64,000 nt of DNA, from the sequence record PP434429, one strand, 5' to 3'. The DNA comes from Escherichia phage LH01. Position 1 is the stretch's first letter, and each line of letters starts with the position of its first letter. The notes beneath the pieces are model-generated. The model ran no database searches. It was not told the DNA's origin and saw nothing but the letters and a program-made list of their open reading frames with translations. Positions 2,520 to 33,438 of this stretch are shown here, piece after piece. The position numbers and the translations under genes are program-made.

Positions 2520-2840
2520 TTACGCTGTGAAGATTTTATCCCACATCGCAACAACTGCATCTCGGTTATACTTCTTCCATACCGCTTCAGCACGTTTAAC
2601 TCGAGCTTCGTATGTGTCAGTGAATTCTAATACAGCTTTTGTGTAAAGCGCAACTACTTCTTTCTTAGGAGTAGAGGAATCAATTTCTACACGCACAGTA
2701 TCTGGGTCGTATTCGAATGTCGCATGAGGATAATCCTTAAAAACTAACTGGATTACAGGGACACCTTTAGAGATGGCTTCAATAGAACTATTCTCTACCG
2801 TACCTGTGTCAGGACACGTATTGATAAGTGCTTTAGCTGT
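2520..2840 (-). pseudogene. C-terminal glycosyltransferase fragment in alternate frame (continuation of 2795..3619)
   Basis: 106 sense codons ending at TAA 2520-2522 with no ATG/GTG/TTG near the 5' end; encodes ...VENSSIEAISKGVPVIQLVF..., a GT-B C-terminal signature; overlaps the upstream ORF in a different frame over about 2798-2840. Confidence 0.5.
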
Positions 2841-3619
2841 TTAAGACGTTCCATGATTTCACTGTGTGGAGCATCAATAATAACAGGATACTTAGCCGGT
2901 GGTGCCCATTTACTAGGACAGTATCCTACACCATTTTCGCCTAGTGCTTTAATCGCTTCAAGAGCAACATCAGTACGACGCATTTTAGTGTCATAACGTT
3001 GTGCACTAATAATCAGATCAGTCGCCGGAAGAACTTCAGGTTTATCATTCAAACAAATAACCGGATAATCTTCGGCTTCAAACAACGGATTTGCTCGCCA
3101 ATAATCATAATCAATTTTGTCAGTCAGACCTGAAGTCATATAACAATATTTGCGTTCAAATTCACGGAAGGCTTTAGTAGGAGCATAACTCTTACCACCG
3201 TTCTTATGAATTTGAATAGTCTGGTCCCAAATTTGAACAATGCCACGAGACACCGGTTCAAATGGTGTTGCCATAAAATTCTTATGAACTTTAGAGAGAC
3301 CCGCGTCTTTAATTGCCTGAACGGTTAGTTTGGTCGGTTCCATTGTAACAACGAAATCGTACTCATTAATGCCGGCTAGTTCAACAATCTTACGAGCCAT
3401 AGTATAACTCATACCTAGACTGAATTTAGTCAGATGACCAACAGGATGATGATTAACCTTCCAGTCACCAAACGTGTCATTATCAAAGCCGATATAATCA
3501 ATATCAGCACCGATGGACACAAGATATTTCAATACATTTAAATGTACTGCTTCAAGACCACCTTGTACACGTTCTGGGTTAAATGGGACTGCGCGAGATG
3601 GGATAAACATAACTTTCAT
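2795..3619 (-). CDS. glycosyltransferase-like protein, N-terminal portion of a frame-interrupted gene
   Basis: 274-aa ORF, ATG at 3619; Rossmann-like half typical of GT-B enzymes; frame terminates at TAG 2795 while the C-terminal GT motif continues in another frame. Confidence 0.55.
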   Translation of the reverse strand: MKVMFIPSRAVPFNPERVQGGLEAVHLNVLKYLVSIGADIDYIGFDNDTFGDWKVNHHPVGHLTKFSLGMSYTMARKIVELAGINEYDFVVTMEPTKLTVQAIKDAGLSKVHKNFMATPFEPVSRGIVQIWDQTIQIHKNGGKSYAPTKAFREFERKYCYMTSGLTDKIDYDYWRANPLFEAEDYPVICLNDKPEVLPATDLIISAQRYDTKMRRTDVALEAIKALGENGVGYCPSKWAPPAKYPVIIDAPHSEIMERLKQLKHLSIRVLTQVR

Positions 3620-3645
3620 AATTAAGCCTTATTAAAATTAAAATG

Positions 3646-15425: not shown

Positions 15426-15588
15426 TTGCAACCCAATCAACCATATGTAGATGGTCTGATAATTGACTAACATGCTGAAGCTGATTAGACAGGAGTTTAC
15501 AAATAAGCTCACTGTTATCATTTTTAAATAGTTGGTCAATACGTTTCTTATGAGCTTTCTTAAGCTGACGTTTATTTAAACGAGCCAT
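15415..15588 (-). CDS. hypothetical small basic protein
   Basis: 57-aa ORF (MARLNKRQLKKAHKK...) below the track threshold; its ATG overlaps the stop of gene 56 (TAATG). Confidence 0.35.
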   Translation of the reverse strand: MARLNKRQLKKAHKKRIDQLFKNDNSELICKLLSNQLQHVSQLSDHLHMVDWVANET

Positions 15589-16109
15589 TAATAACCTCGG
15601 TCTTGACGTGCGAAATTTTCAGCATTTTTCAGGTAATAAAGTTTAAAGATTTCTTCTGCTGTAAGACCAAGACCTTGGAACATGTTCAGAACGAAATGGA
15701 GAATATCAATCATTTCAAACTTAATTTCCAGTTGGTCTTCAGGAGACAGTTCATCGATACGACGATTTCGATATTCAGCATGTTGTGCTTTCCATGGCTT
15801 CCATACAGAGCTAGCGGCTTTTTCACCATTGCTCATACCACCAAGTGAAGTCAGCAGTTCACGGAATTCATCATCAATATAATCTTTCTGATTACGCAGC
15901 CAATCAACAACATCACCAGCAGTAGCCAATTCATCAGGATGTTTGTTATGTTCAGGCTTGTCATTTGCCAGACGAACTTGTAAAGATTTCTGCATATCAA
16001 GCATTACCTGCAGTGGGTCTTTATCTTCGTGAATCAGAGCATTAAAATAAGCTTCTTCTGCTTTATCAACACCAGAAATAAGTTGTGAACATTCGTTAAA
16101 GTGTGCCAT
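15588..16109 (-). CDS. 56: dCTP pyrophosphatase (MazG-like)
   Basis: start at ATG for MAHFNECSQL with AAAGGA RBS; MazG-like helical NTP-PPase pattern; position adjacent to gene 61. Confidence 0.75.
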   Translation of the reverse strand: MAHFNECSQLISGVDKAEEAYFNALIHEDKDPLQVMLDMQKSLQVRLANDKPEHNKHPDELATAGDVVDWLRNQKDYIDDEFRELLTSLGGMSNGEKAASSVWKPWKAQHAEYRNRRIDELSPEDQLEIKFEMIDILHFVLNMFQGLGLTAEEIFKLYYLKNAENFARQDRGY

Positions 16110-19148: not shown

Positions 19149-19397
19149 TTATTCTTTTTCGCGAATAATAATTACTTGTTGAGGCTGCTGAGCAGATTTC
19201 TTTTCGGCGACGATAGACCAAATTAAAGTTCCAATCCAACCAATCATCGTCCAGTTAAAGAGTAAAGATACAAAGAAGATTGCTGTTGTGCTTTTTGTGC
19301 CACGAATAAGTGCGATTACCCAAGGCAACATGTAAATGATGATTGAACCAATACCTGCGATTAAAACTGCTACTGAACTAGCTACGAATAATTCCAT
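19149..19397 (-). CDS. small inner-membrane protein
   Basis: 82-aa ORF; two hydrophobic helices with GWIGTLIW segment, polar C-terminus. Confidence 0.5.
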   Translation of the reverse strand: MELFVASSVAVLIAGIGSIIIYMLPWVIALIRGTKSTTAIFFVSLLFNWTMIGWIGTLIWSIVAEKKSAQQPQQVIIIREKE

Positions 19398-22532: not shown

Positions 22533-22895
22533 TTAAAAGAATTTAAATTTTTTCTTGGTTCGTTCATTAAAAGCTTGTTGTACTTGCATTGTAACACATT
22601 TTTCAACGTGTGGTGCAAGTTCTGCTTTTCTGTCCTGGTCAAGAACTGCAAAGTCCATTACGATTTTACCATCAACCCAGTCTAGTTTTGTAATATAGAC
22701 TATATGATGGGAACCGTCTTCAAGTGTAATCAGAATCTCTTGAATGACATTTTCCATTGCTGAACGGACAATTTTAAGAGATTCATTAAACACTCGTTCT
22801 TTGCGAATGTCCTCCCCTTCCAAAGAAGGGGATTCATCAACGATTTCTAGATTTAAATCATCGAGATTATTCATCGAAATCTTCCATTTCGTCAA
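22533..22895 (-). CDS. hypothetical protein at the T4 gene 40 position
   Basis: 120-aa ORF between 41 and uvsX; synteny only. Confidence 0.4.
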   Translation of the reverse strand: MTKWKISMNNLDDLNLEIVDESPSLEGEDIRKERVFNESLKIVRSAMENVIQEILITLEDGSHHIVYITKLDWVDGKIVMDFAVLDQDRKAELAPHVEKCVTMQVQQAFNERTKKKFKFF

Positions 22896-24039
22896 GGTCG
22901 TTTTCTATATCTGCTGCAGACGGAGCATCAGAAGTTTTAACCGGAACTTTAGTTGTTGCTTTGCAATTAATAAGGTCGTTAACAGCGTCATCAACTTCTT
23001 TAATAGACGAGATGGCGCCTAGCTTATATTTCATTTCAATCGCATCACGGAAAGGTTTGTGTTTAAACAAAGGTCCCCAGAATTCTACACAATCAGTAGC
23101 TTTAGCACGCCACGATTTCTCTTCACGAATCATTTCACCTGTTTCTTCGTCAAGGAATTCGCGAGCATACCAACCGGCTTTAGGCTTAACAACAAATCCA
23201 ATTTCAGTTGCCATTTCTAACAAGCCACTGAATGGATCAATACCGCCATCAAAATTAACCGTGATTGGGAAAGTAGATTTCTCTTTAACTGTACGAGATT
23301 TTTCTGCTTTCAACGTGAAGTCATAACCGGTCAATTCTGTACCTTCTTTAACCTGACGTTTAGAGATAAAGAATACAGTGTTAGCAGAGTAAAGAATACC
23401 TGTACCACCACCCATAATCTCTTTAGGATATAGTCCGCCGATTTCCATTGCTGTATGGTTGATTGCAACACATGGAATATCTTTAATAGTCAGATAAGGA
23501 GTCACAATACGGAACAGAGATTTAAGTGCCTTAGCACGAGACATATCACCTACGACTTTCTCGTTCAATGCATCTTCGGTTTCTTTCTTAGATGCAGTAT
23601 TACCGATTGAATCGATAAAGATAATAACTTTATCACCGCGTTCAATAGCGTCAAGCTGATTAGTCATATCAACTTTAAGTTGTTCGACAGATTGAATCGG
23701 AGTATGAACTACACGGTCTAAATCAACACCCATTGAACGAAAATAAGATTCTGAAGCACCGAATTCTGAGTCATAAAACAAACAGATTGCATCTTTATAT
23801 TTCTTCATATACGCTGCAACCATAGTTAGCCCAAACAATGTTTTAAAATGTTTAGAAGGTGCAGCAAAAATAGTCAAGCCTGATTGCAATCCTGCATTCA
23901 GAGCACCACCTAGTGCGATATTCAACATCGGAATACGAGTAGGGACTTCATCACGATTATTAAACAGCTTAGACTTAGTCAAGTCTGCAGTCATTTTAGA
24001 AGTAGAAGCTTTAATCAGACGAGATTTTAAATCAGACAT
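22867..24039 (-). CDS. uvsX: UvsX recombinase (RecA-like)
   Basis: 390-aa ORF; RecA-fold P-loop region and acidic C-terminal tail. Confidence 0.9.
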   Translation of the reverse strand: MSDLKSRLIKASTSKMTADLTKSKLFNNRDEVPTRIPMLNIALGGALNAGLQSGLTIFAAPSKHFKTLFGLTMVAAYMKKYKDAICLFYDSEFGASESYFRSMGVDLDRVVHTPIQSVEQLKVDMTNQLDAIERGDKVIIFIDSIGNTASKKETEDALNEKVVGDMSRAKALKSLFRIVTPYLTIKDIPCVAINHTAMEIGGLYPKEIMGGGTGILYSANTVFFISKRQVKEGTELTGYDFTLKAEKSRTVKEKSTFPITVNFDGGIDPFSGLLEMATEIGFVVKPKAGWYAREFLDEETGEMIREEKSWRAKATDCVEFWGPLFKHKPFRDAIEMKYKLGAISSIKEVDDAVNDLINCKATTKVPVKTSDAPSAADIENDLDEMEDFDE

Positions 24040-24137: not shown

Positions 24138-24686
24138 TTAACGAGCCCATTTGATGATTTCTGTAATCAAACCATTACGTTCGCTTGCATTAAATCCTAT
24201 AACTTTGTTAGCACCATCATGATTAAGTAATTGATATGTTTGGATTTTGTTATGAATTGCAAACTCTTCAAAATGTGAAATGACTGTATTAAAACCGAAT
24301 GAAGACAAAGTAATAAGGTCGTCTTCAAAACTTTCAGTCATTTCGTTACGTGTTAAAATAATTGTGAACACATCATGGTTTTGGCAAAGACGAACATAGT
24401 CCTGTTCATAAACGTCAAGAACCGAGTCCGCATCTTGTCGAATACGCCCATAAACCCAGTTACTAATATATCCACGGTCTAACAGATAAATCTTAGTAGG
24501 GTCTAAATAATTCAACATCGTTTCGAAACAGCCAACTTCATTTCGAGACTTAACATCGAAACGCCCATCAACTGTTCGTTTAGGGAAATCAATCTTTACA
24601 TATCTTTCACTAATTTCCATTATGTCATTAATGAAAGTTGTTTTACCAGCATTATCTGGGCCGTCTACTAAAATAATTTTAGCCAT
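24138..24686 (-). CDS. P-loop nucleoside-monophosphate kinase, thymidylate-kinase-like
   Basis: 182-aa ORF; Walker A GPDNAGKTT and a DRGYIS segment resembling the TMPK DRY motif; ATG lies 1 nt after the upstream stop. Confidence 0.6.
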   Translation of the reverse strand: MAKIILVDGPDNAGKTTFINDIMEISERYVKIDFPKRTVDGRFDVKSRNEVGCFETMLNYLDPTKIYLLDRGYISNWVYGRIRQDADSVLDVYEQDYVRLCQNHDVFTIILTRNEMTESFEDDLITLSSFGFNTVISHFEEFAIHNKIQTYQLLNHDGANKVIGFNASERNGLITEIIKWAR

Positions 24687-24687
24687 T

Positions 24688-25587
24688 TTATTCCTCGATT
24701 ACGACATCTTCGTATTTAGGTATATTATACGGTGAAGAAATTAAAGCATTAAAGTAGATGAACTCACCAAGACCTGGATGGAATACTTCTTCAGGATTTT
24801 CGAAATATTGAATTTTCGGACGTCCTTTAAGAATTTGATAGTACTCAGTTTTAGTTGGTTTAAAAATTCGAATCAGCGCTTCTTCAGGATACTTATTTCT
24901 GTCGAAGCTATTATTTGGATCGGTTATATAAAGCGGTTGACCTAATTGAATTGCACATTCAACCACTTGTTCAAAACGATAACATGGGTCACTAATTCGA
25001 AATGGATGAAAAATACCATCTAGATGAATAGGAGCCAAATCACCTACAAGACGCTGCATGATGGAAGGACGTATAACTTTCTGAGTTACGATAATCTTAT
25101 TACCATCTGCACCGGCGTTAACCAGCACTTCTTTTTGACGTTCATTCAACACAGTAGTTTGAAGTGAACGATTAACCGACAACATATCGGTTTTTAAGAA
25201 TTCGTCAATATAAAAACGTGGTTTATTAGGGTCTGCCGTGATATTGAAATTGAATTCTACATCAAAAGCGCCGTCATATCCAGTGATATCTGTTATTAGA
25301 AAATCACAATCATAATAAGCAATTAATGAATCAACCACAAATTCATTTTCAGACCAGAAATATTTACGAGTGTTATACGCGTTATCTTTATACCATAATG
25401 GAACAAACTTAAATTCTGGGAAAAGACGTTCACATTCTTTAATATCAGATGCATTACGTGGATATGTAATCACATCACCCGGATTAGCACGGTGCAAATG
25501 AAGTTGGAAGTTGCCATCCTTAAGGATAGCATACTGTCCAGTTTCATAAGACCGCATACTCAAGATAGGTACGCGGAAAATAGCCAT
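24688..25587 (-). CDS. hypothetical protein translationally coupled to gene 42 (candidate DNA-modification enzyme)
   Basis: 299-aa ORF whose ATG overlaps the gene 42 stop (TAATG); occupies the locus where T4 has beta-gt; no recognisable motif. Confidence 0.55.
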   Translation of the reverse strand: MAIFRVPILSMRSYETGQYAILKDGNFQLHLHRANPGDVITYPRNASDIKECERLFPEFKFVPLWYKDNAYNTRKYFWSENEFVVDSLIAYYDCDFLITDITGYDGAFDVEFNFNITADPNKPRFYIDEFLKTDMLSVNRSLQTTVLNERQKEVLVNAGADGNKIIVTQKVIRPSIMQRLVGDLAPIHLDGIFHPFRISDPCYRFEQVVECAIQLGQPLYITDPNNSFDRNKYPEEALIRIFKPTKTEYYQILKGRPKIQYFENPEEVFHPGLGEFIYFNALISSPYNIPKYEDVVIEE

Positions 25588-26303
25588 TAGTCAAGGAATC
25601 CTTTAACATAATCAAAATCACGTTCAAACACATGGGCACTTACCATGGTATGAGTATAATCACCAACTTCTACACCACATTCGTTAGCGATATAATGAAG
25701 TAATTTTCCTTGGAGATAAAAATCCAACTGCATAACAACAGCACAGTTCTGAGAACGCATATGACAGTGGGTATAAAGCTTACCATCACGAATATAATAA
25801 GTTACTGAGTCAGTACATGGATATTCAAGTGTTTCGTCCGAATCAAGCAAAGCCTGATCAGAACTTTCTAGAATTTGGAACACAACTCTTCGGGAGTTAG
25901 GCTTCTCTTTAAGTTCTTTTAGAAGAGCTGGTAATTGGGCCGCAATGCGAGGACCATAGAAAGTGTTGAAGTTCGCCGGCAAAACATCTGATTTTGGTTT
26001 AGAAATAAATTTAGCGACATTAGGATATGCCTTAAACGCTTCTTCTGCGTTGGTACCACCAGAAATCATAAACTTCCAGAAGTCTTCGGCATATTCATAA
26101 GAGATGCGGTTAATACGTGGGTCGGTCATTTTGAATGATGATGGAGTGTCAACAACTACTGTCATAGACCCAATTTCATTACAACGTCCAATACGAGAAT
26201 CAGTTACGAATTCGGGGTTTTCTAAAATTTCACGATTGACTGCTTTAAATGCGGTTTGAAAATCTGCGGCTTTGATATATTTCATTGTGTTATGTTTTCC
26301 CAT
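25587..26303 (-). CDS. 42: dCMP hydroxymethylase (thymidylate-synthase fold)
   Basis: 238-aa ORF; TS-like catalytic region EYPCTDS...HMRSQN with Asp where TS has Asn (QLDFY) by my alignment; position between uvsX and 43. Confidence 0.65.
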   Translation of the reverse strand: MGKHNTMKYIKAADFQTAFKAVNREILENPEFVTDSRIGRCNEIGSMTVVVDTPSSFKMTDPRINRISYEYAEDFWKFMISGGTNAEEAFKAYPNVAKFISKPKSDVLPANFNTFYGPRIAAQLPALLKELKEKPNSRRVVFQILESSDQALLDSDETLEYPCTDSVTYYIRDGKLYTHCHMRSQNCAVVMQLDFYLQGKLLHYIANECGVEVGDYTHTMVSAHVFERDFDYVKGFLD

Positions 26304-26345
26304 GTTTACCTCAATACAATTTATTATATACTCAATTCATAAAGC

Positions 26346-26585
26346 TTATTTGAATTTCTTGGCAATGTTGATATAACGTAAAGCTTCAGAATCTATACTT
26401 CCAAGAACACTATGAAGGAATGCATCAGTGTAGTATTCCAATTGAACAGGTTCTTTAATCACTTTAGCCGCTTTGGTTTCAAACAGGCCCATAAGGGCCT
26501 TTTTAAGAATTTGTTCGTTAGTGTTCAGTTTCATAGTCAAAATCTCTTTGTTAAGTTTATAATTAAAACTTTTTCTAGAAATCAT
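26346..26585 (-). CDS. hypothetical small protein
   Basis: 79-aa ORF from the track. Confidence 0.35.
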   Translation of the reverse strand: MISRKSFNYKLNKEILTMKLNTNEQILKKALMGLFETKAAKVIKEPVQLEYYTDAFLHSVLGSIDSEALRYINIAKKFK

Positions 26586-27751
26586 TCCGGGTACCTCAAA
26601 GCGTCATCAGAGTTAGTTATATCAATAATAGATATGGAGTTTTCTGCTAACCCGTTTTTAGATAATTGACGTTTATAATACCTTTCACAATATGTACACG
26701 TTGACCCACAGATTTCATTAGCACAATCAAAATCTGGATGTCTGAACCACCTTTTTTCTAAAAAGCCATCTAACAAAGAGGTTTCAATATTTACTGTATG
26801 TGAAAACTCAGTCTCATTTTCAAGAGTGAAAATAGTCTCTAAAGGCTTCCACAGTTCTAACAAATTACCTTCAAACTTTTCAGAAGCGTATGCTTCAAGA
26901 ACTTTCAAAATGTAGTCTGTGCTACCTGTACGTCCTGAAACTTTGAATTGAGTGATACCAATATCATTATAAAGTTTCAAATCTTGAGGACGAACAAAAC
27001 GAGTTCTCAACCAGTTAAATGGGTCTGTATCACGAGCTTTAATGCAGTGTTGCATTGGATATCCATTTAAGGATTTAGCATCATCAGCTGTAACATCAGT
27101 ACTATGGAAAATATAGCAAGAGTCACGATAACTGCAATGTGTTGTATACCCTTTACCAGCATTAGAACAGAACTCATTTACAAGAACTTCAAATATTATA
27201 TTGTTCTTATTGCAAAACTCTGCTGCACGCTTCAGGAAAGAAACTGAACGGTTCTTATGAATTCCACAGCAGACCTTTTTGATATTGTATTGGTCATGTA
27301 AGTATTTTATTTGAGTTACAGCATCGACATGTAGAATTGTTGAAACTTCAATCTCAATGTCTTTATTGACTTCACGAACAATTTCCATAACAACAGGGTT
27401 AGCGATAGTAATACGCCATACGCCTATTGACCAAAGATACTGAACATAATCCTGAATAGCTTTCTTCTTCCACTCGACTAGTTCTCTTTTTGAACCAGGA
27501 TTTATCGTGTTGAGTGTATAGTTAAAGCAAATACCTAATTCGTTACAACGTTTAACGTAATCTTCTAACATCTTTTTGTCAACGTCAGGAAGCCTAAAAT
27601 CAGGTCTGGCTGCTACAAAAGCCATTTCTCTTGTAGAGCCGTATACTTCGTTTATCAAGCTGTTAGGATAAGTTTTATTGAGCTCTACGATTTTATCAAG
27701 AAGAGCTAAATCAAAATTCGTTCCGATTTTAAAAGTATTCATTTTTTGCAT
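26582..27751 (-). CDS. Cys-rich protein of unknown function (candidate modification enzyme)
   Basis: 389-aa ORF; C-terminal CGSTCTYC (CxxxCxxC) plus further conserved-looking Cys; no confident family call. Confidence 0.55.
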   Translation of the reverse strand: MQKMNTFKIGTNFDLALLDKIVELNKTYPNSLINEVYGSTREMAFVAARPDFRLPDVDKKMLEDYVKRCNELGICFNYTLNTINPGSKRELVEWKKKAIQDYVQYLWSIGVWRITIANPVVMEIVREVNKDIEIEVSTILHVDAVTQIKYLHDQYNIKKVCCGIHKNRSVSFLKRAAEFCNKNNIIFEVLVNEFCSNAGKGYTTHCSYRDSCYIFHSTDVTADDAKSLNGYPMQHCIKARDTDPFNWLRTRFVRPQDLKLYNDIGITQFKVSGRTGSTDYILKVLEAYASEKFEGNLLELWKPLETIFTLENETEFSHTVNIETSLLDGFLEKRWFRHPDFDCANEICGSTCTYCERYYKRQLSKNGLAENSISIIDITNSDDALRYPE

Positions 27752-27797
27752 CTCGCGTTAATTGATGCGATGGTTTTTGCAGGTCTTACTTAAATTA

Positions 27798-28184
27798 TTA
27801 TAGATTCGGTTTATATGATTTAAATGTTTCGAATTCGCCTTTATTCATAAGAGCTTTGAATTCGTCAGGACGCATAGCTTTGTCGTCGATAATCCAATCA
27901 TATACTGGTTTATGTGTTAGCAAATTATGGTACTTCAAGCCAATGTTTGCCAAGTTCTGAATCAGACTTGGGAGAATGTCAATTGCTATACGACCAGGAC
28001 CTACTGACTTCATACCACGAGCAGTGTAAAGCGTTATGGTATGCCCTGCATCATACAGGGCATTAATGGCAGACACCATTTCGACGTCTGGTTTGAAGTT
28101 CACGTAATCACGATTGTTATTCCACTCTGTTATACAATCATCGACATCAAAACAAAGATTAAGCATGTTTTCTACACGGTGCAT
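27798..28184 (-). CDS. HAD-superfamily phosphatase (small, KdsC-like size)
   Basis: start at ATG for MHRVENMLNLCFDVDDCIT (HAD motif I DxDx[T/C]); later LYTARG and DWIIDDKA motifs; ATG overlaps the upstream stop. Confidence 0.6.
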   Translation of the reverse strand: MHRVENMLNLCFDVDDCITEWNNNRDYVNFKPDVEMVSAINALYDAGHTITLYTARGMKSVGPGRIAIDILPSLIQNLANIGLKYHNLLTHKPVYDWIIDDKAMRPDEFKALMNKGEFETFKSYKPNL

Positions 28185-29869
28185 TAGATTCGTTCCCATT
28201 GATGAGTGATATCGCCACCGATTGGACGATAGGAAACACCAGTTTCTTTATCAGTTAGTACCCATTTACCAGGATTTTTTGTAATCAGAGTAGCCGTTAC
28301 AGGTTCTGCTACGTCATAACTAATAGAGCCGTCTTGAAGTACACGGCCCATGTTGCGTAATTGCTTAGTCAGAAGTTCCATACCTTTATAATATGCGGCT
28401 ACCGCTTTAAGTGGATTATTCTTGAAATAACCACCTAATGCAATCCAGATAATTGCCACCGCCAAATGATGATACTCGTTAAACGAACTCATCTTTCCAT
28501 ATTTGTAAATTAATGGATTGATGTTAATAGTCACATTACAAGTTGTTTCATCAATAGTAAACTGTCCCCAGGTCGGATTAGCATTGAATTCATCATAACC
28601 TGAAACGGCATAAAGCACTTTAGCTTCATCATACAATTTTGGCCCGTAAATCTTGGTTTCGCCAAAATATCCACGAGGGTCGATAAACTTGACTTCGCCG
28701 TTATCAGTAATCATAGTATTACTGAAGTTCGGGTCACCATGAATAACAGAGTACTGTCCCTGAGAACGATTATGATAACGAATAAGGTGTTCTAAAGCTT
28801 GTTTCAGCATTGGCTTCAGACGTCCAATCTTAGTGTAGTTCACATGTGTGATTTTACCAAATGAATCAATCAATGGTTGAATACTTTCACAACGATCAAT
28901 AACTTTCGTATAGAATTCTTTAGTGAAATCACGACGAACAGTTTCAGGACTTACAAAATACGTGTCTGTGCTGAATTTCAGTGCATCTAAAATTGCATCA
29001 ACAATTTGTGGACGAGCAAGACTTGATTTGGATTTAATATATTCAAATGCCGGCTTACCTTTAATGCGTTCCATTTCAAAGTTATTTTCATTAACAGAAA
29101 CTAACTGAGGAACTGAATCTGATTTCACTTTCAAATACCACGAAATCTCATCTTTCTGAAGAGCTCGTCCCTGTTCGGTTAATGCGAATTTAGTTACAGT
29201 TTCTTCACCAATTTCAACTGCATTAAAACTACGATTAAGTTCACGAACTTCATGAGCTTTTTCAAGTTTAGGCATATCACCTAAATCAATTAGATTCATA
29301 AGCTCTGATTTATTGAATGCGCCGCTGTAAAGGAATTCTACGAAATCACGTCCTTTGCAGTATTCATGAATTTCCTCATCGGTAGAACCCATATAGAATT
29401 CCCAGTCTTTGAACTGATAAATTCCTACAACATTACCACCTGTTGAACCTACGTTAGTGATATTTTCACCGTCGAAATTATACCGACATTCGTCACCCTT
29501 AACATAGATTGCGTTAACATTCCAAGACCATGAACCAAAATCAGGAATAATATCACACCAGTTAACAATTACATTATGGCCATCTAAATCTTTGTGTAAT
29601 TTAGCAAGAGCATAAGCAGAACCATACGCTTCATCAACTGTACGAATAGTCACATTGAACCCTTCTTGCTCACAATAAGCTCGAACAGTTTCAGCAAATT
29701 TTGAATGAACTACTACAATAATTTCATCTGCGCCAAGGTCAGAATAAATTGTATACAAATTGCTCAGAATAGTGTCTTGTTTATAGTTAACAAGCACCTT
29801 AGGAATATGATGCGTTATTGGATACAAACGAGTTGCCAGTCCAGCACCAAGAATAACAGCTTTTTTCAT
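28184..29869 (-). CDS. bifunctional sugar-1-phosphate nucleotidyltransferase / sugar kinase (APH-ChoK-like)
   Basis: 561-aa ORF; N-terminus ILGAGLATRLYPIT...PKVLV (NTP-transferase signature); C-terminus VIHGDPNFSNTMI...FIDPRGYFG (Brenner HGD-N and DFG-like motifs of APH/choline-kinase fold). Confidence 0.75.
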   Translation of the reverse strand: MKKAVILGAGLATRLYPITHHIPKVLVNYKQDTILSNLYTIYSDLGADEIIVVVHSKFAETVRAYCEQEGFNVTIRTVDEAYGSAYALAKLHKDLDGHNVIVNWCDIIPDFGSWSWNVNAIYVKGDECRYNFDGENITNVGSTGGNVVGIYQFKDWEFYMGSTDEEIHEYCKGRDFVEFLYSGAFNKSELMNLIDLGDMPKLEKAHEVRELNRSFNAVEIGEETVTKFALTEQGRALQKDEISWYLKVKSDSVPQLVSVNENNFEMERIKGKPAFEYIKSKSSLARPQIVDAILDALKFSTDTYFVSPETVRRDFTKEFYTKVIDRCESIQPLIDSFGKITHVNYTKIGRLKPMLKQALEHLIRYHNRSQGQYSVIHGDPNFSNTMITDNGEVKFIDPRGYFGETKIYGPKLYDEAKVLYAVSGYDEFNANPTWGQFTIDETTCNVTININPLIYKYGKMSSFNEYHHLAVAIIWIALGGYFKNNPLKAVAAYYKGMELLTKQLRNMGRVLQDGSISYDVAEPVTATLITKNPGKWVLTDKETGVSYRPIGGDITHQWERI

Positions 29870-29910
29870 GTTGTGGTCCTCATTGGTAAGTAGGAGTATT
29901 GTACACTATT

Positions 29911-30054
29911 CTAGTTAAAGCATTCATACTTTGCTTGTAGTCCAATCATAGTCCATCCGATTATAAGAGTCGGAATCATTACTGGAGCCGTTAAGCTCCA
30001 GTAGATAGTCATGACAAGCATCAATAGTAAAAGTCCTATTGTTATTGCTTTCAT
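29911..30054 (-). CDS. small membrane protein
   Basis: 47-aa ORF below the track threshold (MKAITIGLLLLMLVMTIYW...); ATG overlaps the SIS gene stop (ATGA). Confidence 0.35.
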   Translation of the reverse strand: MKAITIGLLLLMLVMTIYWSLTAPVMIPTLIIGWTMIGLQAKYECFN

Positions 30055-30686
30055 TGCTCGCCTCGTAACATGGCACCTAGTGCACCGCCTGGATGGAACT
30101 TAAGGAAATCATTAGAGGTAAATCCACGTTCAGACGAAAGGTTGATAGCAAAAGTATCGATAAGCGCTAACAATAATGTAGTGGACATAGTCGGAGCCAG
30201 AGAATTCTCATCAACCTCTACTGCGATGCCTGTACAGAACGTATAATCAAAAAGAGCTTCGTATTCTTGTGGAATGTCTGGGTTACAATGCAACAGAATC
30301 TGTTTGACGTTCGGACGAATCATTTTAAGATGCTTAGCCACGCCTATCATTTCTTCAGTTTTACCAGAACGACTAATATGAATCAACACATCATTAGGCG
30401 CAATGAATCCTGCATCACCGTGAGAATAATGCCCAGTGTTCAAGTACATACTCGGGATACCGAGTGAAGCAAATGTCTCAGAAGCTTTAGTTGCAATATT
30501 AGCATTCTTACCAACACCTGTAATAATTACTCGGCTTTCATAATTACTAAGTCCAGGGCGTCGAAGAGTTTCTAGAATAGCATTATAACGAGCAGGGTTT
30601 TGACTAATTACTTTGGCCATAGCGGCCAAAGAAGAAGCTTGTTTTATGATTGCGTCAATAGCGATATTAATAGGAGTAGTTTTCAT
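30051..30686 (-). CDS. SIS-domain sugar-phosphate isomerase, KdsD/GutQ-type (single domain)
   Basis: 211-aa ORF; ITGVGKNANIATKA...HGDAG...ISRSGKTEE...APTMSTT...HPGGALG matches the arabinose-5-phosphate isomerase SIS pattern; no CBS domains. Confidence 0.75.
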   Translation of the reverse strand: MKTTPINIAIDAIIKQASSLAAMAKVISQNPARYNAILETLRRPGLSNYESRVIITGVGKNANIATKASETFASLGIPSMYLNTGHYSHGDAGFIAPNDVLIHISRSGKTEEMIGVAKHLKMIRPNVKQILLHCNPDIPQEYEALFDYTFCTGIAVEVDENSLAPTMSTTLLLALIDTFAINLSSERGFTSNDFLKFHPGGALGAMLRGEQ

Positions 30687-30726: not shown

Positions 30727-33438
30727 TCAAAAATCGAACATATCGAAGAGAGATGCTTTCTTCTCGTAATCGAGTTTCGCTGCTGATGTGAATCCTTCAA
30801 GTGGTTTAATAAATGTCTTCTCAAGGAGAACAGTGTAGTCCATCCAATGAAGTACGTCGTCTTTAATTAAATCTGTGATTTCAGTACCAGAAGGCCATGC
30901 GATACATTTATCACCGAATGGGTTTCCTTCACGTAAAGGCAGAACATATACTTTTTCACCTTCTACAACTTGTGGAGCATCAATATTACCTTTGATAGCT
31001 CGGTTATATGTCAGAATTCCACGAATATGGAACGGACATTTAGGACCAGGGAATCCACCAACGTCATATTTAGCAATGTTATTCGCAGAAGATACCGACG
31101 CGATGCTAATATAATTCAATTGACGGAATTCTTTTTCAAACTCTTTAAAATATTCTTGTAATGATTCTTCACCTTCTTGAAGCATACGGCGAATACATTC
31201 TTTAAGAGCTTTCTGTACTGCTTTAGGGGTCGAAGATTTCTGTGTTTCGAGACCCATGATTTTGAGTTTAGGCTCAGCGTATCTGGTTCCTTCCATATCC
31301 CACACGTTTAATGCATAACGTTTCTTACCAGTCCAGAATCCGCCAATACCTTTAGAACCGAGTGGAGGACCAGCGATAGCTTCTCGGTCCATGAACATTA
31401 AGTGTTGTTTATTGTTCATGTATTCACACATTTCACGGAAACCTCTATCAATAGCCGGTTCCATACGTTCACGAGCGAACTTATCTAAGAAGTCTACCCA
31501 ATGGTTGGTATCACGGAATTTAGATTCACCAACCTTATCAATAATTTTATCTGCAGATACGTAAATAGAGTCTGTATCACCATAAAGAACGAAAGCTTCA
31601 CCTTCTGTACCACAAACTTCGTTCAGATATTCATTAACTTTACGTTCAATCCACTGTAAAGCCATTTGCCCGAATGTTGTGATTGCAGTAGCATTACGCA
31701 AATCATAATAACGGAACCAAACGTTGCCAAGTGCACCATAAAGTGAGTTGATAAGCAATTTACGGTTAATTTGTGCAGTCATACCTGCAACTTCAGTACG
31801 TTGAGCTCTAAACAACATTTCATTAAGAGATTTAGCAGACAACTTTTTAATCTTTTCTTTAATCTCATCGCTGAAGTCGAAACGATAATCAACATCTAAT
31901 GGTTCGTCAACAGAAAGATTAGGATTATGCAATGCCTCTTTAATTATTTCACCATTACGTTGAGCAGCAAGCATATAACCTTTATGTTCTTTACGTTGAT
32001 TAAAGACTTTAGTGATTTCGGTTGGAACTACACCATCACGGTCTTTATAATACATCATGCCGTTAGGAGAACAACTGTACACATCTGAAGGACGTTCAGC
32101 GATTGCGTTAATATAATCATGCAGTGGAGCTACTTTAAACGTTCCTGCTATTGTTTCCGGGCTAATATTCACTTGGCGAATAATACTTGGATACAGGGAT
32201 GTAAGGTCGAAACTCATTACATATTTGTATCGATTTGGAATAGGTTCCTTAACAAAAGCACCGGGATAAGGTTGAACCGGGTGAGAACGACCTTGTGGAA
32301 TCACCTTGCTCTGCTCTTTAAGGCTATTAAAAATAATAGCATCCCATGTTTTAATTGGGCTAAACACAGATTGAATCTGTATCTTAGCATAATAACCCAT
32401 GTCCAAACTCAAGTTGATGAACTGACGCTTAGCATCAATTTGCAATACACGATACACGTCGATAATGTTATAAGAAATATACCGTTGGTGATTGCTTTCA
32501 CGAAGCTTAGAAATAGGGCCGTCATATTTCAGTTTACCAACGTTCAATTCAAATTCTGAAATGTAATCCAGAGAATACGACGGTTGATTGGTAAAAGAGA
32601 ATTTTTTGTAAAGGTCGATATAATCAAGAACAGAGATACCGAACAATGTAATGATTTCACGAGAACCATACATGTTTTCGATAACTTTAACACGAGTTTT
32701 ACGATGTGGTGATAAACGTTTCGCAGTAGATTCGCCAAAAATATTCTTGATTCGGTTATACACATATGGAATATCAAATGACTCAACGTTCCATCCAGTC
32801 AAAATGACAGGAGTTTTCTGTTGCCAGAAGTTGAGATATTCCATCAACAATTCTTTTTCGTTATCGAACGGCATATAAATGATTTTATCGATAATTTCGG
32901 ATGGAACTTCATCACCACCTTGTTCTTGAAGCTTAGCCGCAATTTCGATAGACCATTCTTCTACATTACCGTATGGAGAATTCAAAAGGTCAAATACATA
33001 AAACCTGTCATCAATTGAGTCATAATGGGTGATAGCATCAATCGGATGTTTTGCTTGTGACGGCTCAGGGAACCCGTCCGGAGATGTTACTTCGATGTCG
33101 AAGTTAGCCACACGAATTTTTGTATGGTCGTATTTGATTTCATAGTTATAAGTGTCAGACAAATACGCCAATTTGAAATCGTCCATGCCAAGTGCTTCAA
33201 GTCCGATATCTTCCATGCGTTTAATCCATTGGGAGGCATCACGCATATTAGCGAACAACTTACGAGTGCACGGCTTACCGTAGATATCGAAATATTTCGT
33301 AGCCTGACTTTCTGGACAATGAGCAAACAGTGATGGTTTATATTCTACTTCACGAGTACGTTCACGGCCATTAGAATCGATGTAACGTTCAAAAATTGAA
33401 TCACCAATCTGTTCAACCGTTAGGTAAAATTCTTTCAT
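30727..33438 (-). CDS. 43: DNA polymerase (family B) with 3'-5' exonuclease
   Basis: 903-aa ORF; exo motifs (FDIEV, YNIIDV), pol motifs DLTSLYPSII, KxxxNSLYG, YGDTDS; sequence reads like RB69 gp43 from memory. Confidence 0.95.
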   Translation of the reverse strand: MKEFYLTVEQIGDSIFERYIDSNGRERTREVEYKPSLFAHCPESQATKYFDIYGKPCTRKLFANMRDASQWIKRMEDIGLEALGMDDFKLAYLSDTYNYEIKYDHTKIRVANFDIEVTSPDGFPEPSQAKHPIDAITHYDSIDDRFYVFDLLNSPYGNVEEWSIEIAAKLQEQGGDEVPSEIIDKIIYMPFDNEKELLMEYLNFWQQKTPVILTGWNVESFDIPYVYNRIKNIFGESTAKRLSPHRKTRVKVIENMYGSREIITLFGISVLDYIDLYKKFSFTNQPSYSLDYISEFELNVGKLKYDGPISKLRESNHQRYISYNIIDVYRVLQIDAKRQFINLSLDMGYYAKIQIQSVFSPIKTWDAIIFNSLKEQSKVIPQGRSHPVQPYPGAFVKEPIPNRYKYVMSFDLTSLYPSIIRQVNISPETIAGTFKVAPLHDYINAIAERPSDVYSCSPNGMMYYKDRDGVVPTEITKVFNQRKEHKGYMLAAQRNGEIIKEALHNPNLSVDEPLDVDYRFDFSDEIKEKIKKLSAKSLNEMLFRAQRTEVAGMTAQINRKLLINSLYGALGNVWFRYYDLRNATAITTFGQMALQWIERKVNEYLNEVCGTEGEAFVLYGDTDSIYVSADKIIDKVGESKFRDTNHWVDFLDKFARERMEPAIDRGFREMCEYMNNKQHLMFMDREAIAGPPLGSKGIGGFWTGKKRYALNVWDMEGTRYAEPKLKIMGLETQKSSTPKAVQKALKECIRRMLQEGEESLQEYFKEFEKEFRQLNYISIASVSSANNIAKYDVGGFPGPKCPFHIRGILTYNRAIKGNIDAPQVVEGEKVYVLPLREGNPFGDKCIAWPSGTEITDLIKDDVLHWMDYTVLLEKTFIKPLEGFTSAAKLDYEKKASLFDMFDF

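Follow-up and report, generated by a model that had tools for sequence, protein, structure and literature searches.

In the genome of Escherichia phage LH01 (sequence record PP434429), of which a stretch of 64,000 nucleotides (nt), hereafter the window, was analysed, a minus-strand gene cluster occupies the interval between uvsX and the DNA polymerase gene (gene 43). Judged from its sequence, this region is very probably a Mosigvirus (RB69/HY126-type) cluster that replaces the cytosine of virion DNA by mono- and di-arabinofuranosyl-5-hydroxycytosine. This cluster has already been published (Thomas 2018; Mahler 2025; Lee 2026, PMC13326640; He 2026), and the finding of a first-pass annotation of the window, a DNA sugar-modification module in this position, is therefore not novel as stated. 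What is new concerns a gene for a protein of the U32 family inside the cluster: (i) in 17 phage loci U32 stands in place of the thymidylate-synthase (TS)-type hydroxylase beside the same glycosyltransferase (GT), and (ii) U32 travels with chorismate mutase, found in 16 of 41 U32-positive loci and in 0 of 36 U32-negative loci. By analogy with cellular enzymes, and with moderate confidence, we propose that the phage U32 protein is a prephenate-dependent, O2-independent cytosine C5-hydroxylase acting on DNA precursors or on DNA. It would be a second hydroxylase of the pathway, dependent on an iron-sulphur (Fe-S) centre and prephenate, that sustains 5-hydroxycytosine synthesis in hosts growing without oxygen.

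The U32 protein (389 amino acids (aa), Cys-rich) had been considered a candidate transferase in the first-pass annotation. Instead, it matched Pfam Peptidase_U32 (PF01136; 7.4e-11, 42.2 bits vs a cutoff of 22.4), and its AlphaFold2 (AF2) model (pLDDT 88.8) is a TIM barrel whose top PDB match is the U32 protein Mk0906 (5d88), which points to a U32-family TIM-barrel enzyme. Direct sequence comparison retrieved no PDB chain at E<=1 and gave a BLASTP E-value of 0.049 for RlhA; profile-profile comparison was needed to link the protein to U32 enzymes, and in this comparison (hhalign, 96% to Escherichia coli RlhA, TrhP, UbiU and UbiV) C206 and C212 fell on the canonical CX6C pair. The phage protein belongs to the same TIM-barrel family as RlhA, TrhP, UbiU and UbiV and aligns with them in the CX5-6C part of the Fe-S motif, but it is only 14-24% identical to the E. 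coli U32 paralogues, its third and fourth cysteines are spaced differently, and it has an extra C-terminal CX4CX3CX2C motif. Ten cysteines, including those of the latter motif, are invariant across 30 homologues.

All U32 enzymes with an assigned function are Fe-S, prephenate-dependent, O2-independent hydroxylases. The 5-hydroxycytidine (ho5C) of 23S rRNA is made by RlhA, whose action depends on chorismate mutase activity (PMC5727448). TrhP forms 5-hydroxyuridine (ho5U) in tRNA alongside an O2-dependent counterpart, TrhO (PMC6599085), and for UbiU/V prephenate is the oxygen donor under anaerobiosis (PMC10990095). It is because every function-assigned member of the family is such an enzyme that an O2-independent role is suggested for the phage U32. 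The parallel with RlhA and TrhP would comprise C5-hydroxylation of a pyrimidine and, in relatives of the phage U32, a genomic link to prephenate supply, and that with TrhO/TrhP and UbiIHF/UbiUV the coexistence of one enzyme that needs O2 and one that does not; unlike for the cellular U32 enzymes, the presumed substrate would be a deoxynucleotide or DNA. As the TS-type enzyme needs O2, the hosts live in the gut and gp56 destroys dCTP, a prephenate-dependent hydroxylase would close the resulting gap.

The distribution of the gene provides the first line of evidence. Relatives of the 299-aa transferase encoded next to the TS homologue (the GT299 family) were found in 68 unique loci, and TS homologues were sought within 10 kb. 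A TS homologue only was present in 34 of the 68 loci, both a TS homologue and U32 in 16 and U32 only in another 16; the two loci with neither come from contigs that end at the transferase. In one of the 16 loci with both genes (L037) the TS is a canonical ThyA and not a hydroxylase-type TS, and therefore 17 loci rely on U32 alone. Gene order in the U32-only loci is either kinase-GT-U32, with overlapping genes, or GT-SIS-AfhE-...-U32 (see below for SIS and AfhE), and the thymidylate kinase (TMPK)-like kinase was detected with two-round profiles in 13 of the 17. An apparent restriction of this kinase to TS-type loci (40/50 vs 0/16, p=6e-9) turned out to be a sensitivity artefact of single-sequence phmmer and was reversed by the profiles; since the kinase does occur in U32-only loci, its supposed absence was no longer taken as a reason why U32 should have to act on DNA.

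The U32 gene was found in 221 phage genomes, always with at least 80% identity, and the listed hosts are Enterobacterales and Shewanella. In the Shewanella phage Thanatos-2, where it occupies a different slot, U32 is 82% identical to the LH01 protein (vs 65% for the polymerase, 68% for UvsX and 71% for TS) and thus the best-conserved protein of the region in this comparison. Homologues with 45-58% identity are encoded on large uncultured phage contigs. The gene for AfhE, the bifunctional sugar-nucleotide enzyme of the cluster, is present in 373 genomes, including those of 57 Acinetobacter phages and of E. coli Dhakaviruses, and the inspected loci of these two groups have no U32.

The second line of evidence is the neighbourhood of U32. 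Chorismate mutase, counted as open reading frames (ORFs) above the Pfam cutoff or as DAHP synthase-chorismate mutase fusions, lies within 622 nt of U32 in 16 of the 41 unique U32-positive loci, as compared with 0 of 36 U32-negative loci (p=8e-6). In T4-like phages of Enterobacter, Edwardsiella, Pectobacterium, Yersinia, Serratia, Proteus, Klebsiella and Shewanella an ORF of approximately 80 aa, encoding a type II chorismate mutase, follows U32, and the U32-adjacent ORFs of this kind (roughly 80-90 aa) score 33-48 bits with Pfam CM_2 (cutoff 27). The phage DAHP synthase and chorismate mutase are the entry and the exit of the shikimate pathway and would raise the level of prephenate. A Flavodoxin_2-like gene, in turn, is located immediately upstream of the TS hydroxylase of the N169 type (described below) in 14 loci, none of which carries U32; its product resembles NAD(P)H:flavin reductase and likely supplies reduced flavin to the TS hydroxylase. 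Each of the two hydroxylases is accompanied by a gene for the supply of its co-substrate. RB69-type phages have no Flavodoxin_2-like gene.

Some further observations were made on these neighbourhoods. The chorismate mutase ORF is labelled hypothetical in the annotated records inspected (e.g. TH2_069 of Thanatos-2). In large uncultured phages the gene beside U32 encodes a DAHP synthase-chorismate mutase fusion or only a DAHP synthase. On four metagenomic contigs (L011, L013, L016 and L017; up to 466 kb) of large phages with a DnaE-type polymerase U32 is found beside dCMP deaminase, uracil-DNA glycosylase (UDG)-family, thymidylate kinase and radical-SAM/SPASM genes, and two of them (L011 and L013) have no GT299 relative. 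Such neighbourhoods in DnaE-type large phages hint at other DNA modifications based on 5-hydroxypyrimidines.

Several points weigh against the proposed function of U32. The correlation with host oxygen is partial: U32 was seen only in phages of facultative anaerobes and is absent from the inspected Acinetobacter-phage loci, but the E. coli Dhakaviruses also lack it. The RB69-type clade, LH01 included, has no chorismate mutase gene, so host PheA/TyrA would have to supply prephenate. In the U32-only clusters a TS homologue could lie more than 10 kb away. Of the four canonical 4Fe-4S cysteines only two align, with C195 and C236 invariant nearby but unaligned. Lee et al. guess at a "sugar or heterocycle reductase" (PMC13326640). 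Nothing was found that contradicts the assignment of the cluster itself, although the second arabinosyltransferase gene is frameshifted in the window.

The guess of Lee et al., whose paper lists the phage U32 gene only in these words, corresponds to a role as a redox helper, i.e. a reductase feeding the flavin of the TS hydroxylase or acting on a sugar or heterocycle (PMC13326640). The richness in cysteine, with ten invariant residues and the C-terminal motif, would suit such a role, as would weak Foldseek matches of the protein to flavin TIM barrels such as MTHFR; moreover, the TS-type enzyme needs reduced flavin, and in other phages it has the Flavodoxin_2-like gene at its side. We nevertheless regard a redox helper as unlikely. 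In the 17 loci where U32 adjoins the same GT and kinase there is no hydroxylase-type TS within 10 kb, and U32 therefore cannot serve that enzyme there; at least 7 of these 17 loci are devoid of any sugar-nucleotide genes; and the association with chorismate mutase fits a user of prephenate, not a reductase.

T4-like phages carry tRNA genes, and the U32 protein might hydroxylate RNA (phage or host tRNA U34 or 23S rRNA C2501), tuning translation during infection without any relation to DNA modification. RlhA and TrhP do act on RNA (PMC5727448; PMC6599085), but an RNA target is improbable for a gene that is located inside a DNA-modification operon, to which it is translationally coupled, that abuts the DNA GT in at least 8 independent loci and that is complementary to the dCMP hydroxylase across loci, and for a protein that is much shorter than RlhA (389 vs 653 aa) and devoid of its DUF3656 and C-terminal RNA-binding regions. 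The prephenate-dependent hydroxylation of DNA precursors or DNA is the reading that we favour. In a literature search that covered neither He et al. 2026 nor Mahler et al. 2025, no paper was found that ties U32 or chorismate mutase to phage 5-hydroxycytosine; the text of Lee et al. contains no mention of U32, prephenate or chorismate and cites the RlhA/TrhP papers as unrelated hydroxylation routes (PMC13326640).

The organization of the cluster is given in Table 1. The ORF list of the window contains all seven genes reported in the first-pass annotation, at the same positions and on the minus strand, but nine ORFs in total are found between uvsX and the polymerase gene, as ORF79 and a 47-aa hydrophobic ORF had been overlooked. 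The GT gene is coupled to the TS ("gene 42") homologue, as had been claimed: its start overlaps the TS stop in TAATG, and the same overlap is present at the AfhE/HAD junction. ATGA overlaps are found at the U32/ORF79 and SIS/47-aa ORF junctions, and GT and kinase are separated by a 1-nt gap.

Table 1. Positions of the genes discussed in the LH01 window and in related phage loci (L numbers).
Gene or feature	Sequence	Position	Strand	Remarks
uvsX	window	22867-24039
TMPK-like P-loop nucleotide kinase (RB69 gp45)	window	24138-24686	-	182 aa
Predicted arabinosyltransferase 1, GT-B (RB69 gp46:47)	window	24688-25587	-	299 aa
Predicted 5-hydroxy-dCMP synthase, TS homologue (RB69 gp48)	window	25587-26303	-	238 aa
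ORF79 (RB69 gp49)	window	26346-26585	-	79 aa, no assigned family
U32-family TIM-barrel protein (RB69 gp50)	window	26582-27751	-	389 aa
HAD phosphatase (RB69 gp51, HY126 AfhF)	window	27798-28199	-	133 aa; likely start 28184 (RB69-style), giving 128 aa
Bifunctional AfhE (RB69 gp52:53)	window	28184-29869	-	561 aa
47-aa hydrophobic ORF (RB69 gp54 region)	window	29911-30054	-	annotated in LF82-4 and HY126
Predicted SIS-domain arabinose-5-phosphate isomerase (RB69 gp55)	window	30051-30686	-	211 aa
DNA polymerase	window	30727-33438
Predicted second arabinosyltransferase (RB69 ORF003c/gp3 homologue)	window	2520-3619	-	frameshifted; outside the range of the first-pass annotation
gp56 dCTPase	window	15588-16109	-	100% identical to RB69p028
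imm	window	~19149-19397
Chorismate mutase ORF directly downstream of U32	L024	11170-11406
Chorismate mutase ORF directly downstream of U32	L010	11134-11391		Thanatos-2 TH2_069
Chorismate mutase ORF directly downstream of U32	L023	11325-11564
Chorismate mutase ORF directly downstream of U32	L030	11357-11668
Chorismate mutase ORF directly downstream of U32	L033	11384-11782
DAHP synthase(-chorismate mutase) gene near U32	L051	8323-9384
DAHP synthase(-chorismate mutase) gene near U32	L046	8399-9430
DAHP synthase(-chorismate mutase) gene near U32	L049	7290-8354
DAHP synthase(-chorismate mutase) gene near U32	L012	9145-9891
DAHP synthase(-chorismate mutase) gene near U32	L035	9384-10127
Flavodoxin_2-like gene	L020	5739-6293		also in L088, L091-L095, L097-L099, L101, L103, L106, L112
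GT-kinase fusion ORF	L052	5237-7054		metagenomic
GT-kinase fusion ORF	L044	2591-4408		metagenomic
GT-kinase fusion ORF	L055	5318-7003		metagenomic
~167-aa ORF upstream of AfhE	L008	8440-8940		IME08
~167-aa ORF upstream of AfhE	L010	4988-5491		Thanatos-2

The positional comparison with T4 drawn earlier is correct, since T4 has the order uvsX-segA-b-gt-42-imm-imm.1-43 at the equivalent site. Comparison of the window ORFs with T4 showed that the interval from uvsX to the TS gene contains no b-gt. The gene imm, thought to have been displaced, is indeed absent between the TS homologue and the polymerase, but it is not lost and lies elsewhere in the window. Base composition is uniform, with a GC content of 0.33-0.39, and does not suggest a foreign island, and promoter and terminator scans performed no better than on shuffled sequence.

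As a check, the first-pass annotation had called for a search for co-occurrence of the genes in related phages. Matches to the 6.8-kb block were found in 298 phage records, of which 151 cover at least 80% of its length, and the block is therefore not a chance feature. The best match is Escherichia phage LF82-4 (99.0%), the top matches are all Mosigvirus, and the start of the window corresponds to RB69 coordinate 1 (rIIA). Genes, gene order, position and TS signature are shared with RB69 gp45-gp55 and the Afh cluster of phage HY126 (96-100% protein identity); protein by protein, identity is 98.6-99.4% to RB69, with ORF79 (88.6%) as the exception, and 96.4-100% to HY126. The genes for the 299-aa and 561-aa proteins, intact in the LH01 window, are each broken into two ORFs in the RB69 GenBank record, in both cases through documented sequencing errors (PMC6024577; PMC13326640). 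A further difference from RB69 and HY126 is a 1-nt deletion in the second transferase gene of LH01.

The 299-aa protein, which covers RB69p047 and RB69p046 as one ORF (99-100% identity), has no Pfam match. Structure prediction, likewise proposed as a check, gave a GT-B fold (AF2 pLDDT 93.9), and the Foldseek matches in PDB are all GT-B: MshA (3c4q), sucrose-P synthase (6kih) and UDP-GlcNAc 2-epimerases. The model thus identifies it as a GT-B glycosyltransferase, and the earlier expectation of a transferase among the uncharacterised proteins of the cluster holds for this protein, though not for the U32 TIM barrel. The GT-B protein would add the first arabinose to 5-hydroxycytosine and the gp3 homologue the second.

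The neighbouring kinase was correctly labelled TMPK-like: it is 98.9% identical to RB69p045, has the P-loop GPDNAGKT and matches PHROG 761 (thymidylate kinase, 5.7e-45), with weak Pfam and NCBIfam TMPK matches. We infer that it phosphorylates modified dCMP. Its gene is a neighbour of the GT gene in almost every related locus, and in three metagenomic loci single ORFs consist of a GT299-type domain (~residues 20-390) and a C-terminal TMPK-like P-loop kinase (EGFDRIGKDS). These fusions are a Rosetta-stone link between transferase and kinase.

This arrangement bears on the order of events, for the first arabinose might be added before replication to the mononucleotide 5-hydroxy-dCMP (5hodCMP), the product then being phosphorylated by the TMPK-like kinase and later sugars being added on DNA. 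Such an order is suggested by the triad of hydroxylase, GT and kinase, kept with overlapping genes in TS-type and U32-type clusters, by the three fusion proteins, by the failure of any single GT to act on DNA containing 5-hydroxycytosine (5hoC) in the experiments of Lee et al., in which mononucleotide and DNA were not distinguishable as acceptors (PMC13326640), and by the gp1-type dNMP kinase, for which phosphorylation of 5hodCMP has been shown (PMC13326640), so that the TMPK-like kinase would have nothing left to do. On the other hand, glycosylation follows replication in the T4 paradigm, the negative in vitro transfer was perhaps technical, and the polymerase might not accept arabinosyl-5hodCTP. 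We consider the mononucleotide route possible but doubtful, and keep to incorporation followed by arabinosylation.

The gene of the second transferase is 99% identical at the DNA level to RB69 2520-3620, but the loss of a single A from a homopolymer (AAAA to AAA) near position 2842 splits it into a 274-aa ORF (2795-3619; 274 of 366 aa) and a fragment (2520-2696). In the 8 closest relatives the matching stretch, which in all of them retains the additional base, spans 1152 nt, vs 1151 nt in LH01. The deletion could be a real loss or a homopolymer sequencing error; if real, mainly mono-arabinosyl 5hoC would be expected in LH01.

The base to which the sugar is attached was first described differently. 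In 2018, Thomas et al. detected arabinose in the DNA of RB69 and suggested arabinosyl-5-hydroxymethylcytosine (arabinosyl-hmC) (PMC6024577), the assignment that the first-pass annotation also gave. By mass spectrometry (MS) and nuclear magnetic resonance (NMR), however, the DNA of RB69 and of Acinetobacter phage DLP3 was shown to carry mono- or poly-arabinosyl ether-linked to 5-hydroxycytosine (PMC13326640), and the arabinosyl-hmC assignment has been called erroneous (PMC13390438). 5-ara-dC and 5-ara-ara-dC were detected in DNA of Mosigvirus NP (PMC13390438), and arabinosyl-5-hydroxy-dC in virion DNA is reported for RB69, HY126, NP, Bas46 and Bas47 (PMC13326640; PMC13390438).

The same correction applies to the enzyme. 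RB69 gp48 converts dCMP to 5hodCMP in vivo, binds FMN and takes the oxygen from 18O2; its product was 5hodC (243 Da, and 245 Da with 18O2), while that of T4 gp42 was 5-hydroxymethyl-dC (5hmdC) (PMC13326640). The diagnostic residue of a 5hodCMP synthase is Asn at the position of ThyA D169 (PMC13326640). In our alignment the TS homologue of the window (99.2% identical to RB69p048; Pfam Thymidylat_synt, 2.3e-15) has the signature E143/C146/N169/D177, compared with D/C/D/D in T4 gp42 and L/C/D/N in E. coli ThyA, and the E/C/N/D combination is present in 48 of 50 distinct TS homologues adjoining the GT. Having Asn where T4 gp42 has Asp, the protein is not the dCMP hydroxymethylase that had been supposed and, by its signature, is predicted to be a flavin- and O2-dependent dCMP 5-hydroxylase. 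In the resulting scheme the gp56 dCTPase would supply dCMP and exclude dCTP (a role taken from Table 1 of PMC13326640), the TS homologue would hydroxylate dCMP at C5 with flavin and O2, as shown for RB69 gp48 and HY126, kinases would raise the product to 5hodCTP, and the polymerase would incorporate the latter.

A phage-encoded nucleotide-arabinose pathway with a DNA sugar module in place of the T4 glucosyltransferase, as put forward in the first-pass annotation, is supported, though with another order of steps. We adopt the route from ribulose 5-phosphate (Ru5P) via arabinose 5-phosphate (Ara5P), arabinose 1,5-bisphosphate and arabinose 1-phosphate (Ara1P) to UDP-arabinofuranose (PMC13326640, citing He et al. 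2026 on HY126), in which, as far as He et al. 2026 is cited there, free arabinose is no intermediate. By homology, the SIS-domain isomerase would convert Ru5P to Ara5P. It is 98.6% identical to RB69p055 and matches Pfam SIS (1.5e-10); its matches to NCBIfam KpsF/GutQ (2.3e-32) and KdsD (1.2e-30) cover residues 48-207, with 107-113 bits vs curated cutoffs of 204-505. The label of a KdsD-type isomerase holds for the domain and probably for the reaction but not for the full architecture, as the pair of CBS domains is missing (211 vs ~320 aa), and the protein probably works like KdsD in truncated form.

AfhE is 96.4% identical to HY126 AfhE and covers RB69p053 and RB69p052 (98.6-99.4%). It has a Pfam NTP_transferase domain (8.5e-10, residues 3-99) and weak APH/fructosamine-kinase matches at residues 350-405, with the APH-like motif HGDPNFSN at 377, which bears out its description as a kinase-nucleotidyltransferase fusion. 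We take the N-terminal part to be a UDP-arabinose pyrophosphorylase, which would convert Ara1P to UDP-arabinofuranose, and the C-terminal part an APH-like Ara5P 1-kinase, which would form arabinose 1,5-bisphosphate. The small HAD protein was rightly called a phosphatase: it is 100% identical to the HY126 protein and 99.2% to RB69p051, contains the motif DVDDC and matches the NCBIfam EcbF-BcbF capsule phosphatase (4.3e-13). With the function that PMC13326640 gives for AfhF on the basis of He et al. 2026, it is the presumed arabinose-1,5-bisphosphate 5-phosphatase and would release Ara1P. The two AfhE steps and the AfhF step were shown for the HY126 proteins (PMC13326640).

The version of the first-pass annotation, with a hydroxymethylase, arabinosyl-hmC and the order Ara5P, free arabinose, Ara1P and NDP-arabinose, can draw on the report of Thomas et al. 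2018 (PMC6024577), on the alignability of the window TS homologue with T4 gp42 and on Table 1 of PMC13326640, where, other than in the main text with its bisphosphate route, the HAD enzyme still dephosphorylates Ara5P to arabinose that then yields Ara1P, but it is scarcely tenable in view of the ether link found in the NMR and MS re-analysis, the different products of gp48 and gp42, the verdict of PMC13390438, N169 in the window protein, and the phosphorylation of Ara5P to the 1,5-bisphosphate by HY126 AfhE followed by removal of the 5-phosphate by AfhF (PMC13326640).

The pathway assembled here, arabinosylated 5-hydroxycytosine made from dCMP and Ru5P, resembles the glucosyl-hmC system of T4 in its genome slot (uvsX to gene 43) and in its logic: a dCTPase, a TS-family enzyme giving dCMP with a hydroxyl-bearing C5, a kinase, incorporation and then a GT-B transferase. 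It differs in that T4 uses folate-dependent hydroxymethylation and the RB69 type flavin/O2 hydroxylation (Asp vs N169), and in that T4 takes UDP-glucose from the host whereas the RB69 type relies on phage-made arabinofuranose and has no b-gt homologue. Acinetobacter phage DLP3 and the Dhakaviruses share AfhE, HAD, the N169-type TS, GT1 and the TMPK-like kinase with LH01, with SIS in DLP3 only, and their clusters are without U32; DLP3-type phages have two extra GTs and tri-arabinosyl 5hoC (PMC13326640). The Dhakavirus and Thanatos clusters contain no SIS gene and have instead an unannotated ORF of ~167 aa upstream of AfhE. In these phages Ara5P may come from host KdsD/GutQ or from a different isomerase.

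Two small ORFs complete the cluster. ORF79, which shows the lowest conservation in the block (88.6% identity to RB69p049) and is interrupted in HY126, occupies the slot that is the site of the mini chorismate mutase in related genera. It has no Pfam match and, in particular, no match to CM_2 at E<=1 or to a custom chorismate mutase hidden Markov model, and was rejected as a diverged chorismate mutase. Phages of Pectobacterium, Yersinia and Enterobacter have a homologue of ORF79 with a chorismate mutase gene behind it, and the latter gene is absent from Mosigviruses. The 47-aa ORF between AfhE and SIS is strongly hydrophobic, and the RB69 record notes a similarity to the T4 42-imm intercistronic region there; there is no evidence for a part of this ORF in the pathway.

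The cluster accounts for the resistance of RB69-type phages to many restriction enzymes and CRISPR nucleases, for their detection by type IV systems such as BrxU/GmrSD, and for the inability of RB69 to recombine with T4. The proposed role of U32, if true, would answer the question of how these phages replicate in the anoxic intestine when their only known base hydroxylase needs O2 and their dCTP is destroyed by their own dCTPase. RB69-type phages would then make 5-hydroxycytosine by two routes, one aerobic and one anaerobic, as in TrhO/TrhP and UbiIHF/UbiUV. The phage protein would become the first member of the U32 family, and its reaction the first hydroxylation with prephenate as donor, to be assigned to DNA modification, which would extend this chemistry from RNA and quinones to DNA and give a reason for the existence of phage chorismate mutase genes. 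Many uncultured phages would use U32 together with a glycosyltransferase and a kinase, in many cases supplemented by a phage-encoded chorismate mutase or DAHP synthase-chorismate mutase, and would have no TS-type enzyme. The combination of U32, a GT299-type transferase and a TMPK-like kinase would therefore serve as a signature for finding glycosylated 5-hydroxypyrimidine DNA among uncultured phages of anaerobes, with relevance to phage therapy and to the sequencing and cloning of such genomes.

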